A program made the position numbers and the translations under genes. Of a DNA stretch of 64,000 bases, positions 57,477-64,000 are shown piece after piece. Origin of the DNA: Alphaproteobacteria bacterium (lineage in GTDB: Bacteria; Pseudomonadota; Alphaproteobacteria; Bin95); contig CBDBGH010000003.1 in assembly GCA_965205265.1 (NCBI GenBank), positions 2,240,001 to 2,304,000 of the forward strand. Reading direction: 5' to 3'. Below the pieces are notes generated by a model. That model ran no database searches, had not been told where the DNA came from, and saw only the letters and a list, made by a program, of their open reading frames with translations. Positions within the stretch are counted from its first letter, which is position 1. Every line of letters starts with the position of its first letter.

Positions 57477-57701
57477 ACATATAAAAGCAAAAAGGGCCAC
57501 TCGGTACCGGTTAGTGCCACAGGGTGCCTAACCGGACCATAACGCTATATATTTTCTAGGATTTTTGCCTCCCCACGGGCTTGACCTAGTGTCAGTCGGG
57601 ACCTATCCTGGGTCACCGAGTTACTCCCGGTTGCTTGCGCTACGCTTACGCTTATGGCACGCAGAATCGGTCGGGCTCGCCAAATCCGCCGGAGGCATCG
57701 C

Positions 57702-58892
57702 ATGGCCAAGCTTCAATACCGCAACATCTCCAAGCGCACCGTCGACGGGCTCACCGTCGAGGACAAGGACGCCGTGTTCTGGGACCGCGAGCTGCCGGGC
57801 TTCGGGGTCAGGGTCTATCCCTCCGGCTCGAAGGTCTTCGTTGTTCAGACCCGGACTGGAGGCAAATCCAAACGGATCACGCTCGGACGCTACGGCGTGC
57901 TCACTGCCGACCAGGCCCGCAAGATGGCGATCAAGAGCCTGATGGCGCTCAAGAGCGGCCAGGACCCGCAGGCCAGGCCCGCGAGCACGGTCACTGTGAA
58001 CGAACTCGTGGCGCTCTACTTCCGGGACCATGTCGCACATCACTGCAAGGCGAGCACGGCGAAGGCCTACCGGCGCCTCGTCGACCGCTTCATCCTGCCG
58101 GCCTACGGCCGCCTGCCCGTGGAGAAGGTTGACCGCGAACACATCGCCAAGCTCCACCGTAAACTCGGCGACCGGCCCTGCCAGGCCAACCGGGTGCTGG
58201 AGATCGCCGTCAAGCTGTTCAACCTTGCCGACGAATGGAAGCTGCGCACCGGCGGCAATCCGTGCCGGTTCGTTCGCAAATACCCGGAACAGCGGCGGGA
58301 GCGGTTCCTGACCGACGCGGAGTTCCGCCGGCTGGGCGACGTGCTGAACGAAATGGAGGCTGACGGCTCCCTGCCGACATATCCGGCAGCGGCGATCCGC
58401 CTGCTGATGCTGACCGGGTGCCGGCGCAACGAGATCGTGACGCTGGAATGGAAGAACGTGGATCTCGAAGCCGGCGAGCTCCGCTTGCCCGATTCGAAAA
58501 CGGGGCCGCGCATGGTGCCCCTGTCGCCGGTGGCGGCGCAGCTGCTGAGAGAACTGCCGCGCGTCCAAGACAATCCCCATGTGATCCCGGGTTTCCGGCC
58601 CGGCAAGCACCTTGCCGACCTCAACCACTATTGGGACCGGGTGCGCGAGAAGGCCGATCTGGCGGAAGTCCGGCTGCATGACATCCGACACAGCTTTGCG
58701 TCACGGGCGCTCGCGCTCGGGGAGTCGCTGTCGATGATCGGCAAGCTACTCGGCCACAGCAAGATCGACACCACCTCGCGCTACGCGCATCTGGCCCGGG
58801 ATTCGATCAAGGCCTCGTCCGCGCGAGTCGCCGACAGCATCGGAGCCGACATCCTCGACCGGCCATGCCCGCGCGAGACCGCCTCCGCCTGA
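57702..58892 (+). CDS. Tyrosine integrase with N-terminal arm-binding domain
   Basis: WDRELPGFGVRV, LTGCRRNE, SKTG, HDIRHS, LLGH, TSRY catalytic set. Confidence 0.95.
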   Translation: MAKLQYRNISKRTVDGLTVEDKDAVFWDRELPGFGVRVYPSGSKVFVVQTRTGGKSKRITLGRYGVLTADQARKMAIKSLMALKSGQDPQARPASTVTVNELVALYFRDHVAHHCKASTAKAYRRLVDRFILPAYGRLPVEKVDREHIAKLHRKLGDRPCQANRVLEIAVKLFNLADEWKLRTGGNPCRFVRKYPEQRRERFLTDAEFRRLGDVLNEMEADGSLPTYPAAAIRLLMLTGCRRNEIVTLEWKNVDLEAGELRLPDSKTGPRMVPLSPVAAQLLRELPRVQDNPHVIPGFRPGKHLADLNHYWDRVREKADLAEVRLHDIRHSFASRALALGESLSMIGKLLGHSKIDTTSRYAHLARDSIKASSARVADSIGADILDRPCPRETASA

Positions 58893-59766: not shown

Positions 59767-61698
59767 ATGGAGACTTTCACCCTAGACGCTCGCCAACTTG
59801 CTCGTATCGAATCGGTTCACCGCGGCTTTCTCTATCAGCACCTCTACGCTGCGGCGTGCTTGTTCCACGCCGCGAGCTCGGGCGTCACACACGTCATCGT
59901 CGAGAACGACGAAGACATTGAGCTAGTGCTCCCCGAACGGCGCATCTATGCGCAGATCAAGACGCGCGGATCGCGCCTTAGCTTCAGCGATATTGAAAGC
60001 GCCCTCACGAGGTTCGATCAGATTCGCACAGAGCACGTCGAAGGCCGACGAAACGGCGCCTGCCAATTCGTTGTCGTGTCGAGCGCGGCACCCGGTCCAG
60101 ATCTCGCTGAACGAGCGGTAGGTGCGGACTGGCCGAACGACGTAACTCTCTTGCACCCCGGGTCTGCCTCTGCGGACGCTGCGCTCCCCGAGCCGTGGGA
60201 GACGGTTAGCGAGGCCTTCGAAGCATGCCGGGCGGCGGCGGAGACACTGCCGTTTTCCATCCTGGCGCCCGAAACACTCGTTTGGAAACTCGCGGGGCGA
60301 ATATTCGCGGCGGCAGCGGGTATCGAACCCAACCCAAGCCACACTTTTGCTGCCGAGGATCTTCCAGACCTCTTTGAGCAACTGGTCGTTCAACTGCAGG
60401 ACTTTCCCACGCCGCCGCTGCGATACCGGCCACAGGATAGGGAGCCGGCGCTCGTCAGCCCGCAACGCGTGCGGCTCGTCGTCGGCTTCTCGGGCGCTGG
60501 CAAGACCTCATGGGTTTCCCAAGCCGCTCTGCACGCGACCGACAGACTCGCCTATTACGACGTTGCAGACCTGTCTGGTCCCGCGCTGGCAAGCGCCGTC
60601 GCTCGTGAGCTTGCGGCTCGAATGTTCGGCTCACGCGGCGGCACCCTAGGGGAAATTCTGTTGCCCGGAGCGAACGGAGCCGAAATCCTCGTCGCGATCG
60701 GTCACCACCTTGCGAAAGATGGCCTCACTGCGACCGTGGTCTTGGACAACGCCCACCGCGTTGCCGCCGCCGACATTGCTTCCCTCATTGCCGCGTCCCC
60801 GCAATTGCGCTTCGTCCTGCTCGCTCAACCAAACGCTTCGATTGCCCGCCTCGAAGCCACTCTCGGGATTTCAGCCGAACCTCTTCTCGGTTGGTCGAAC
60901 GAGACCGCCGCGGAGGAAGGGTCATCGCTTGGATGTCGCGGTGGCTATGCGGACTATGAGCGTTTGCTGACGCTCACAGGTGGCTTGCCGCTGTATGTTC
61001 AAAACGCTCTCAAGATTGCCGCCAAGTCTTATGGCGGTAGCGTCGGTCGTCTCTGCGTAGCGCTTGAGGAGCGGACGCACATCGTCGAAACGGCACAGGA
61101 ACTCATCCTCGCGGATGTTTTCGATACCTACACTGACAATGAGCGCCGTACGGTCGCCGCACTCAGCCTGAGTGATGTTCCGCTCTCACAAGCCGAGGCC
61201 AGCACTGTACTGAAGCGGACGTTCGGCTTGGAGGCAGCCGACGCAGCCGCAGCGTATCGCCGTCTTCGATCAAGTGGCTCTATTCAGATCTTCGGCGTCG
61301 ATCGCTTCAAGATTCACGATGCGATCCGTCCGATCGGGTGCGCGTACCTCAACGATTGTGGTGTCGCCACGCTAAAGACGGCGCAGCAGACAATTCGCGA
61401 TCTCATGATGGTCGCGCTGCCGAAAGAGCATGATCGCCAACGGGTATTCCTTCTCCTTCGGATGTTCGTGACTCTCGGCAATGTGAAGCCTTTGGTCGAG
61501 ATGGCTACCGACGAGCTGTTTCATGAACTTGGTTACATGGAAGAGATTTCTGCGTTCCTGTCCCAGGCCGCTGCGTCTGAACACATGCCCGCCGAAGACC
61601 GATTCTGGGCTCTCGACGGACTCGTCTTTGCTCACTTCAAGGCCGGTGACGATACTGACGTCCGAAGCAAGCTCGATCACATTGTTAGCGACGGTTAG
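59767..61698 (+). pseudogene. Cap4-like nuclease plus P-loop (STAND-like) NTPase protein, C-terminally truncated by IS21
   Basis: RGFLYQ...ENDEDI...YAQIK; GFSGAGKT; VVLDN; TGGLPLY; lower GC; frame runs into the IS end at 61683. Confidence 0.75.
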
Positions 61699-61776
61699 GA
61701 AGGGCGTTTATTTGCTGGCGCGGAACGGCCGGTTTGTGCGGCTTGCGAGCAGCGTCGCATGGGTTAGGTGTTGCGT

Positions 61777-62670
61777 TCATCTGATTGGGCGGTCATCGGT
61801 TTCGAGCGGCTCGCCGTCGCGGTCACAGATGAGCATGTCGTTCCAGTCCTGGTTTTCGAGGGCCGGTCGCATTCGGACGATTCTTGTGTCGTTGTCTTGC
61901 ATGCGGCGGGCGGCGTGATCGCCGTATCGTGTAGCGTCCCAGGCACAGAAGATACGGCGCGGGTTCCAGGCCTCGACCCATTTGGGGATTCTGGCCGTGA
62001 TGGCGCCGGTGGAGACGACGGCGCATTTGCTGCGTTTTTCCGGGACGAGGTGGAGGGAGAGGATCGACAGGGCGTCGAGGGCGCTGCCGGTGAGGATGAC
62101 GGTGCCGGGCCAGTCGGGCTCCCATGACATCCAGAAGCCGCCGTCTGCGGCCGGCTCCTGCGCTGCGGGGAGGGTCTCTATGCCGACCACCTTGCTGGCG
62201 GCGTTTCGGCGGAGGAACACGGGATTGCCGCGCCGGTCGGCACGGATCAGGCCGAGGCCTCGGCATAGCTCGACGAGCGCGTCGGCGAGGCCGCGCTGCT
62301 CGATGAGGTATTGCCGCAGCGCCGGCCAGCGAGGGTCCTGGCACGAGGGCTCCGCCTCACAGCGACTGTTCGGGAGCCGTGAGTGGCGCGGCAGTTGGGC
62401 GAGGAAGTCGAGGGCTTCGGTCGTTGGGCATCCGAGCGCATGAACCGCCAGCTGGATGGCCCCGGCGCCTCCCTCTCCGCGCAGATGGTCGTAGAACATG
62501 AAGCGGTTGATGGAGAGGACCGAACCGGCTCGTCTCCAGCGCGCGGCATCGGCGGGATCGCGGCGATAGCCGAGGGCGTGGACCACGTCTTCGAGGGGGC
62601 AGCTTCGCAGCCCCTCGGCCCGCAGGCGGCGATCCCATGGATGCAGATGCTGCACGGCTGGCTCAGGCAT
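61777..62670 (-). CDS. DUF3991/TOPRIM-like protein carried within the IS21
   Basis: [14 protein letters not shown]...[47 protein letters not shown]. Confidence 0.75.
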
Positions 62671-63448
62671 CCCCCGTGTCTTGCGCCGTGCTCTTGCCCG
62701 CTCCTTTTGCCGATCGCCGCCGGCGGCGATCGGCGCTGCGCTGCTTCTGGCGTTCCTCGGCCTCCTTGCGGCGGTATGAGTCGCCGTCGATGGCGAGGAT
62801 CTCGGCATTGTGGACGAGCCGGTCGACAAGGGCCACGAGGCAGGCGGCGTTGGGGAAGGCCTCGCTCCACTCGGCGAAGGGGCGGTTTGTGGTGATGATG
62901 GTGGAGCGCTGCTGGCTGCGGCTTGAGACGATATTGAACAGCAGGTCGGCATGACGGTTGGAGTAGGAGAGATATCCGACTTCGTCGATGACCAGGAGGT
63001 GCTGGCGGGCGTAGAAGCGCAGCCTGCGCTGGAGCATTGTGTCGGAGTCGATGGCGGCGAGCTCGCCGAGCAGGCTGGCGGCGGTTGCGAAGCGCACGGT
63101 GTGGCCTTCGAGGACGGCGCGGTGTGCGATATTGGCGGCGATTGTGGACTTGCCGACGCCGTTGGGGCCGATGAGGACGACATTGGCGCCCTCGCGGAGG
63201 AAGTTGAGGGTCATGAGGTCCTCGACGGCCATGCGGTCGCATCGCCTTGGCCAGTCCCAGTCGAAGTCGGCGAGCGGCTTGAACTGTCCGAGGCGGGCGG
63301 CGGTGAGGCGTCGCCTGAGGCTTCGGCTTCGCCTCTCTTCCTCTTCCCATGCGATCAGGGGCGGGAGCCAGTCGCGCTCCGCAACCTCGCTCCAGTGGGC
63401 GAGGAGGCCGTGCAGTCCGAGCGCCGTGGCGCGGTCCTTGAGGGTCAT
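62663..63448 (-). CDS. istB: IS21 helper AAA+ ATPase
   Basis: [40 protein letters not shown]. Confidence 0.95.
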
Positions 63449-64000
63449 TCTTCGCTGTCCTCCTCGTGGTGGCTTGCGAGCCCGTCGTATCCGCCGAGGT
63501 CGTGATCGCGGACCGCGATATCGCGCAGTCTTGGATCGCCGGGCAGGTCGATGGGGATGGGTGGTGGCTCGTTGCGCTGTTCGCGCCGCCGGTTCAGGCT
63601 GAAGCGCACCGCATTGGGATGGGGGACGCCGCGCTCAAGGGCTTCATCGATGGCGGCTTCGAGTTCGACGGCTCCGTAGTCGTCGAGCAGGCGCAGCAGG
63701 GAGGCGACGGTTGTGCCGATATTGCCGCCGCGCCTGGCGGTCTCGGCAAGCAGGCGCTCGCTGTCGGGGGCGGCCTGGAGAAGGCGGCTCTGCCCGCGCA
63801 GGCGGTGGGCGTGACGTTTGAGCCTGACCAGCTCCTCGATGTGCTCGGGGGTCTCGATGCGGGCCGCCTTGTCGAAGCTGCGCGGATGACGGGCGACGGT
63901 GTCGGCGCCGTCGAGGATGCGTACCTCCTCCAGTGTCGCGACCACGGTGAGGGTGCGCCGCGTATGGGTATGCGGGACGCTATAGTCATTGAGGTCGAAC
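63445..64000 (-). CDS. istA: IS21 transposase, C-terminal part
   Basis: FDLNDYSVP...VARHPRS beta-barrel, helical tail; overlaps the istB start. Confidence 0.9.
   Translation of the reverse strand, partial: FDLNDYSVPHTHTRRTLTVVATLEEVRILDGADTVARHPRSFDKAARIETPEHIEELVRLKRHAHRLRGQSRLLQAAPDSERLLAETARRGGNIGTTVASLLRLLDDYGAVELEAAIDEALERGVPHPNAVRFSLNRRREQRNEPPPIPIDLPGDPRLRDIAVRDHDLGGYDGLASHHEEDSEE

Follow-up and report, generated by a model that had tools for sequence, protein, structure and literature searches.

The DNA analysed here, called the window throughout, is a stretch of 64,000 nucleotides from an Alphaproteobacteria bacterium (contig CBDBGH010000003.1, positions 2,240,001 to 2,304,000), and its last 2.3 kb, positions 61683-64000, form the right-hand part of a 4,086-bp insertion sequence (IS) of the IS21 family whose final gene, orf3, encodes a primase-like protein. 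A BLAST search of the window's own genome (G000) with a longer stretch delimited the element, which lies on the minus strand, at G000:C3:2301683-2305768, C3 being the contig of the window. This corresponds to window position 61683 up to the equivalent of 65768, with 1,768 bp beyond the window end (positions above 64000 are given as window equivalents). The element carries four co-oriented open reading frames (ORFs) in the order orf0-istA-istB-orf3. A preliminary description of the window had proposed a three-gene element; the count is four, with orf0 preceding istA beyond the window.

The first gene, orf0 (equivalent 64952-65386, beyond the window), encodes a Cys-rich and very basic protein of 144 aa that matches no Pfam family and has 56 unnamed relatives in the protein collection; its stop lies one base ahead of the istA ATG. 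Only the 3' part of istA (63445-64000, minus strand) falls inside the window, the whole gene of 501 aa running to the equivalent of 64950. In Pfam, IstA matched Mu-transpos_C_2 at 82.9 bits, rve at 26 bits, below the cut-off of 32.6, and helix-turn-helix (HTH) families weakly. An ATGA overlap joins istA to istB (62663-63448, minus strand), which encodes the IS21 helper AAA+ ATPase of 261 aa: PF01695 matched at 193 bits in Pfam and the equivalog NF038214 at 212 bits, against a cut-off of 200, in NCBIfam. IstB has a conserved basic C-terminal extension, and mean column identity in its alignment is 88%. As had been described, orf3 (61777-62670, minus strand, 297 aa) starts within the last istB codons, its ATG (62668-62670) overlapping the istB stop (62663-62665) as ATGCCTGA. 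A GGGGG ribosome-binding site had also been attributed to it. The G-run is present and abuts the ATG with zero spacer, and is therefore badly placed as a Shine-Dalgarno site; termination-reinitiation coupling to istB is the more plausible way in which orf3 is translated. The orf3 stop lies 94 nt inside the right IS end.

When 61500-64000 was searched against the own genome, 16 places matched at 100% identity and all ended at base 61683, which bears out the terminus placed there by the preliminary description, about 94 bp beyond the end of orf3. The right IS end (61683-61776, minus strand) begins with the terminal inverted repeat, which reads TGTTAGCG... on the plus strand; the 21-nt motif AAGGGCGTTTATTTGCTGGCG lies at 61700-61720 and is followed by further similarity to the left end. 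The left inverted repeat, to be sought beyond the window, was located at the equivalent of 65731-65768, with target duplications present. The two IS ends read TGTCGG... and ...GCTAACA, that is TG..CA. They pair as an imperfect inverted repeat over about 38 nt, and scattered identities continue to about 75 nt. A scan of the whole element with the 21-nt motif gave two matches, one per end, against 0.01 expected, and none between istB and orf3. Every copy includes orf3, and the idea that the true inverted repeat might precede this gene can be dropped. The genome holds 14 full copies, 12 of them uninterrupted (4085-4087 bp, both ends in common) and two composite, plus several truncated near-identical pieces. 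Target duplications of 5-7 bp flank 9 of the 12 uninterrupted copies and both composites, 11 of the 14 full copies in all. In the window the duplication is ATCACAT at 61676-61682 (no strand assigned), its partner copy lying beyond the left end and outside the window; in the orientation of the element, atgtgat stands on both sides. These data show that the IS has recently transposed many times in this genome.

Some copies have a history of their own. A 1,051-bp repeat, itself an IS with seven full copies in the genome, is nested in two IS copies (G000:C3:3728904-3729954 and 4998892-4999942), 85 bp from the right IS end and just past the orf3 stop. Both composites have 6-bp target duplications of their own, and the 5.1-kb composite has therefore itself transposed. 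Two inverted copies (G000:C3 5166688-5170773 and 5341828-5345913) are without matching target duplications, and TCCGGG borders one copy on its left and the other on its right, a pattern that would be expected if recombination between both copies had inverted the intervening 170 kb.

The link between istB and orf3 is constant. In three genomes orf3 follows every full-length istB, 16 times in G000, 22 in G005 and 17 in G010 (55/55); one G005 copy is interrupted by an insertion, and in one G000 copy (C3:5286699-5290783, 4,085 bp) a 1-bp deletion splits orf3 into frames 1-112 and 110-297. Three truncated istB copies occur in G010. With fragments included, the orf3 query found 26 matches in G005 and 21 in G010, at 68-70% identity. 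We also searched 60 related genomes, 16 of the same genus, 20 of other genera of the family and 24 of other families of the class: homologues were present in 9 of the 16 other genomes of the genus, and absent from all 20 and all 24 of the rest. The order orf0-istA-istB-orf3 is kept in six other genomes of the genus, at identities to this genome of 76-88% for IstA, 80-92% for IstB, 59-86% for orf0 and 57-69% for orf3, and in seven lineages orf3 starts between −8 and +12 nt from the istB stop. Finally, a scan with one genome per species found 72 orf3 loci in 24 assemblies, with istB-orf3 adjacency in 19 of them and only fragments in the remaining five. A one-off capture, which the preliminary description had considered, does not account for 55 out of 55 istB copies, six genomes of the genus and 19 of 24 assemblies, and orf3 is, as this description held, an integral, operon-coupled part of a mobile IS21-family element.

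Fold, active site and selection of orf3

The DUF3991-like middle region that had been noticed in orf3 was recovered by Pfam: DUF3991 (PF13154) matched residues 120-165 at 27.8 bits against a cut-off of 24.5, over the first 46 of 74 profile positions, and Toprim_3 (PF13362) matched at 13 bits, below its cut-off of 27.2. An AlphaFold2 model based on 27 sequences had a pLDDT of 83.8 and a pTM of 0.82, and was weak only at residues 1-5 and 96-106. Compared with the PDB by Foldseek, this model gave 22 matches at E ≤ 1e-3, and among the matches listed all were DnaG, T7 gp4 or Twinkle primases. The best was 2au3 (Aquifex DnaG, zinc-binding and polymerase domains; E 5e-7), and others were the DnaG cores of E. 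coli, M. tuberculosis and S. aureus, the T7 gp4 primase fragment and Twinkle. On its predicted fold, orf3 is a homologue of a small primase of the DnaG/T7-gp4 type, composed of a zinc-binding-domain (ZBD)-like domain, DUF3991 and Toprim, in agreement with the first reading of the protein as primase-like. This first reading also noted an N-terminal region without zinc cysteines. The region was correctly described; no zinc-ligand Cys was found at the aligned N-terminal positions of either orf3 or its intact relatives, and this absence is therefore a family trait and does not belong to the decay of this lineage.

The active site is another matter. We aligned 26 IS-borne sequences with 18 relatives, which share 36-53% identity with the reference P0246. 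Database proteins were assigned to the IS by sequence, with the genomic context checked for those read from loci. The column of the Toprim Glu holds E in 17 of the 18 relatives and in none of the 26 IS-borne sequences, which have K (13), G (7), A (2), D (2) or N (2). Similarly, the second Asp of the DxD motif is present in 17 of the 18 relatives and never in the IS-borne set (T in 24, S in one and P in one). In the orf3 of the window, the G of TGSALDALS sits in the Glu column and the T of DAT in that of the second Asp, just as had been deduced from its sequence, and DWND is indeed kept, W276 and N277 in 26 of 26 sequences and its two D in 23 and 24. Moreover, the loop (F/W)(R/K)GMAPGSRKA of the relatives is deleted. 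The survival of other acidic residues (D199, D245, D251, D275 and D278, each in 23-26 of the 26 sequences) might be taken to mean that orf3 is still an enzyme, a primase or Toprim nuclease with altered chemistry; with the Glu replaced by K, G, A, D or N, the second Asp never kept and the GSRK loop lost, this is very improbable.

The 27 degenerate sequences fall on a single branch of a maximum-likelihood tree (support 100/100, stem of 0.63 changes/site), nearest to the intact proteins P0103, P0105/P0110 and P0246. A C-terminal acidic tail, GEP..TDDR, is found only in this IS-borne clade, where D292, D293 and R294 are kept in at least 90% of the sequences.

We then asked how strongly the gene is constrained. 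The pairwise ratio of non-synonymous to synonymous substitution rates (dN/dS, by NG86) among seven lineages, already named as a check on orf3 in the preliminary description, is below 1, at 0.45-0.68 (0.90 in one near-identical pair); the values are 0.23-0.40 for istA, 0.11-0.33 for istB and 0.22-0.70 for orf0. For three deep pairs of orf3, the bootstrap 97.5% bounds are 0.59, 0.76 and 0.80. Within the protein, the disordered linker (residues 93-114) has a dN/dS of 0.65-2.2, the folded domains 0.26-0.83 and the C-terminal tail, where computable, 0.23-0.80. Hence orf3 is under purifying selection, with a constraint about half that on the transposition genes. This bears on the possibility that orf3 is a hitch-hiking relic, a former primase gene without a present role that is carried inside the inverted repeats. 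In favour of such a relic, orf3 has lost three catalytic motifs, and its former Glu position is unconstrained; its dN/dS exceeds that of istA and istB, related IS21 elements work without orf3, and the intactness of copies within a genome says little when these copies are near-identical. We nevertheless find it quite unlikely. The dN/dS stays below 1, with bootstrap upper bounds of 0.59-0.80, between lineages that differ by up to 43% in protein; 49 columns are invariant in 27 sequences and many more nearly so; the model is confident, and the indels among lineages are in frame and fall in the linker. The tail, gained after the loss of catalysis, is conserved, and full-length istB without orf3 is absent from the three genomes (0/55).

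According to these results, orf3 is very probably an integral, functional and catalytically dead primase homologue of the IS. Several points weigh against this reading and against the explanation built on it below. The Foldseek TM-scores are low, 0.3-0.4, and the likeness of orf3 to primases is therefore one of domain by domain and not of the rigid whole chain. The residue at the former Glu position is free to change, like that of a decaying site, and orf3 has roughly double the dN/dS of istA and istB, which means relaxed constraint. The 24 assemblies with orf3 loci are titled as metagenome-assembled genomes (MAGs) of Alphaproteobacteria, Defluviicoccus, Dehalococcoidia, Chloroflexota, Gemmatimonadota and Pseudomonadales, and the bin labels of short repeat contigs in MAGs are unreliable, which makes the cross-phylum spread firm only for a few long contigs; two orf3 loci lie on a 442-kb contig titled Dehalococcoidia. 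As for expression, 24 public sequencing runs were listed, 8 of them containing most of the stretch; runs with a small share of it, and the uncovered parts of the RNA run, were left out of the evidence. In the metatranscriptome X20 a 1,103-nt contig covering 61765-62858 (103 differences, about 91% identical) extends unbroken over the whole of orf3 and the istB 3' end. This fits, weakly, co-transcription of istB and orf3 in a related element, given that it is an assembled contig of an RNA library, which may hold DNA, and that it comes from a 91%-identical relative.

The last point concerns the nearest annotated IS21 relatives, whose IstA proteins are about 60% identical and are found on plasmids of Burkholderia, Paraburkholderia, Caballeronia and Cupriavidus. 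These Burkholderia-type elements are without orf3, which is therefore not needed by IS21 chemistry as such. Their annotation lists istA and istB, followed by a coupled hypothetical gene of 71 aa; we considered this ORF as a remnant of orf3 and rejected it, as it has no similarity. In the one Burkholderia-type record examined (L117), an ORF immediately ahead of istA, left without annotation, is a homologue of orf0 (60% over 57 aa, E 2e-18), and a tblastn search of plasmids with orf0 gave no matches. It follows that orf0 is part of a wider IS21 subgroup, and that the place after istB, taken by the 71-aa ORF in these relatives, is a variable slot.

Catalytically intact relatives in other transposons

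The preliminary description saw in orf3 a third subunit co-opted by an IS21 element. The gene does encode an integral subunit; a lone co-option by one IS is not borne out, for intact homologues are widespread. A module of about 270 residues resembling orf3 occurs as a protein by itself and as part of larger ones, of 400-2400 aa. Within the genus, intact paralogues, which retain E and DxD, are 35-46% identical to orf3. One of them (L043) stands behind the genes for a Mu-type DDE transposase and for an AAA_22 ATPase, overlapping the latter by ATGA; another (L042, G014:C30) follows a Mu-type transposase/AAA_22 pair and an AAA_25 protein. In two further loci, L041 (G004:C682) and the metagenome locus L125, an intact primase-like gene is convergent to the istB 3' end of another IS21-like pair, within about 300 nt of it (about 25 nt in L041). 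The AAA_25 (RepA/DnaB-like) protein of L042 (1095-2132) has a C-terminal winged helix, and the same gene order recurs in the metagenome locus L149; it is apparently a transposon that carries a helicase together with a primase.

We also scanned metagenomes with aligned intact relatives and kept the best 80 of the 485 relatives returned, which gave a more regular picture. DxD is present in 74 of the 80 loci; one of the two search patterns includes the Glu, so that its presence is partly by construction, and DxD is independent of this. An IstB-like gene lies directly upstream on the same strand in 61 of the 73 loci with at least 400 nt upstream, the remainder showing AAA_22 or AAA_25 in three cases and nothing recognised by the queries used in nine. 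When the IstB of L142 served as query, IstB was found upstream in 65 of the 80 loci. Where more than 3.6 kb of upstream DNA was available, in 33 loci, the order Cys-rich ORF, ParB-like, IstA, IstB, primase occurs in 30, forming five-gene IS21-like elements of about 5 kb. In L142, for example, IstB (192 bits) is accompanied by an IstA-like protein, a ParB-HTH/KorB-like protein and a protein with DUF3991 and Toprim_2 domains, both above cut-offs, and a GTGA overlap joins istB to the primase gene. Toprim_2, whose cut-off is 22.1 bits, reaches 27.3 and 38.1 bits in intact relatives. The primase gene of L176 lies within 4.97 kb bounded by a pair of 52-nt inverted repeats that contain internal sub-repeats. 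The orf3 protein is 33% identical to the L142 primase-like protein (E 5e-32), and the IstA and IstB of the window element are only 25-38% identical to those of the five-gene elements. We conclude that intact homologues are a standard gene after istB in a large and diverse set of IS21-like elements. Since they regularly follow a transposon ATPase, the dead orf3 is a derived state of an existing transposon module.

A few observations complete this picture. In L142 (313-1690) and L176 (1038-2445), the ParB-HTH/KorB-like protein is preceded by the Cys-rich ORF, which has no Pfam family; we tried it as a homologue of orf0, and BLASTP gave an E of 0.5, not significant, leaving a positional analogue only. 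Two database proteins, P0196 and P0198, are far from orf3 in the tree and have N-terminal motifs that, by eye, resemble those of the L142 protein. Should both belong to five-gene elements, the module is carried by at least two IS21 lineages, which probably acquired it separately. A class-wide search with the intact paralogue P0246 found none in 400 other genomes at E ≤ 1e-20, this being an even sample searched with one query and not a proof of absence.

Catalytically dead paralogues often act as inhibitors. This raises the possibility that orf3 brakes the transposition of its own element, or that it is dominant-negative against related active-primase elements that share its hosts. Elements with intact homologues, at 35-46% identity, do occur in genomes of the genus, and the long stem branch together with the new tail fit a change of function. 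On the other side, the idea draws on no direct evidence, the orf3 query revealed no intact paralogue in G000, G005 or G010, so that the supposed target would often be absent, and the high copy numbers argue against a strong brake. We regard such a regulatory role as distinctly improbable.

Possible roles in transposition and comparison with known systems

IstA is said, in work of Reimmann and Haas dating from 1990, to cleave 3' ends. The intermediates of such 3'-end-only chemistry need DNA synthesis for completion, and a primase beside the DnaC-like IstB would therefore serve that step. The ancestral module may thus have been a transposon-borne primase that worked with the DnaC-like ATPase at the strand-transfer intermediate, where it would help to start the DNA synthesis that completes transposition after 3'-end-only cleavage by the DDE transposase. 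A helper for replicative transposition, one of the roles put forward in the preliminary description, would fit the intact relatives better. In the lineage of the window, primer making appears to have been given up, while the protein retains its fold and, on its surface, many conserved positions that are basic or aromatic. The best overall explanation, to which we give about an even chance, is that orf3 is a derived, non-catalytic member of this transposon-borne primase module and acts as an adaptor. As such it might bind single-stranded or forked DNA at the transposition intermediate, with the acidic tail docking a partner, either IstB, IstA or a host replication-restart factor, so as to pass the intermediate to host replication or repair. 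This specific mechanism we infer, and hold as tentative and rather doubtful. A complex prediction for IstB and orf3 scored 0.00 in two runs without controls, and speaks neither for nor against binding. On a wider scale, one could imagine, as a speculative scenario that we would not expect to prove right, that IS21-like and Mu/TniAB-like transposons repeatedly took on a small DnaG-like primase as an extra subunit, translationally coupled to their DnaC/MuB-like AAA+ ATPase, forming a 'mini-primosome' that would begin to replicate the strand-transfer intermediate independently of the host restart primosome, and that the window lineage went one step further, to a non-catalytic adaptor with a docking tail.

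The adaptor reading has to be weighed against a role in target choice. In Tn7/Tn5053-type operons, target selectors occupy the position after the AAA+ regulator; orf3 stands directly after such a regulator gene and is translationally coupled to it, and reading a single-stranded DNA template is what a primase fold is made for. Thus orf3 might bind lagging-strand or conjugation-type DNA and steer IstB, as TnsE or TniQ/TnsD do for TnsC. The distribution of the copies could be read in this way: 9 of the 16 lie at 4.67-5.35 Mb, beside the origin that cumulative GC skew places near 4.4 Mb of contig C3 (with the terminus near 1.5 Mb), which could reflect either regional targeting or local hopping. 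TnsE, however, yields insertions in one orientation relative to replication. No such bias is seen in the 16 copies of this one genome, 7 being co-directional with replication and 9 head-on, a small sample in which recombination between copies may have altered orientations, and the TnsE-like targeting of replication intermediates suggested earlier finds no support here. The target duplications, which are GC-rich, have no common motif beyond genome composition. Furthermore, most relatives keep the catalytic residues, which argues for an enzymatic ancestral role rather than pure recognition. For these reasons we consider a target selector unlikely.

The insertion site in the window can be described briefly. 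Next to the IS, a 643-aa P-loop ORF (59767-61698, plus strand) extends 16 nt into the IS end, and the IS copy has therefore replaced the original 3' end of this ORF. It matched AAA_22 at 26.6 bits, just below the cut-off, and its N-terminus gave a weak Cap4-nuclease-like match (20.3 bits, cut-off 26.2); the ORF may encode an NTPase of the defence type. A tyrosine integrase of 412 aa lies 2.8 kb from the IS (57654-58892, plus strand). It matched Phage_integrase at 86 bits and also has an Arm-DNA-binding domain, and its presence suggests an integrated island in this region of the window.

A full-text literature search returned no report linking IS21-type elements to a primase, Toprim or DUF3991 gene; ISfinder and TnPedia lay outside its scope, and a prior listing there is possible. 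The primase-like third gene of IS21-like elements is thus apparently undescribed so far. IS21 is a structural model for AAA+-regulated transposition and is described as a two-gene system; the elements found here indicate large and varied IS21-like groups with three to five conserved genes, one of which encodes a primase homologue, with its catalytic residues usually in place. If the primase-like protein takes part in transposition, it offers a handle on how the intermediates of 3'-end-only DDE transposases pass to DNA synthesis, and it would add a self-priming class to the bacterial insertion sequences. In this respect, the dead orf3 is a natural separation-of-function variant, which could separate a structural or recruiting role from primer synthesis. 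With 16-26 copies per genome in the three genomes G000, G005 and G010, these IS elements are also strong genome shapers in their hosts.

Compared with known systems, the element is like IS21 in its IstA with HTH, rve and Mu C-terminal domains, its IstB equivalog, its istA/istB overlap, its TG..CA ends and its 5-7 bp duplications. Canonical IS21 elements are about 2-2.7 kb long and make target duplications of 4-8 bp. According to PMC10122671, IS21 family members have two ORFs between two terminal inverted repeats. In contrast, the present element has four genes in 4,086 bp, and a related form has five genes in about 5 kb. IstA, IstB, the ends and the duplications are those of IS21, whereas the two-ORF layout and the size are not, and the element is therefore a variant of the family and not its canonical form.

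The orf3 protein shares with DnaG and T7 gp4 the order of a ZBD-like domain, the N-terminal subdomain of the polymerase (here DUF3991) and Toprim, its best matches being 2au3, 5w33, 1eqn, 1dde and 1nui. Unlike these primases, which are 10-17% identical to it where solved, the whole clade lacks the zinc cysteines, and orf3 has neither a helicase-binding or helicase domain, nor the Toprim Glu, nor the second Asp of DxD, nor the GSRK loop. The plasmid 'DUF3991 and TOPRIM' proteins and the MobV relaxase fusions contain the same module, at 24-29% identity over about 90% of orf3; unlike the plasmid proteins of replication or transfer, orf3 is free-standing in a transposon after a transposition ATPase. 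As an accessory protein beside a DDE transposase and an AAA+ regulator, it recalls TnsE of Tn7, TniQ/TnsD and the MuA/MuB pair of Mu, and it differs from TnsE and TniQ in having no sequence or fold likeness to them and no orientation bias. Mu-type 3'-end-only chemistry leaves an intermediate that requires replication, and Mu relies on host primosome proteins, whereas the IS21-like elements described here bring a primase-like gene of their own.

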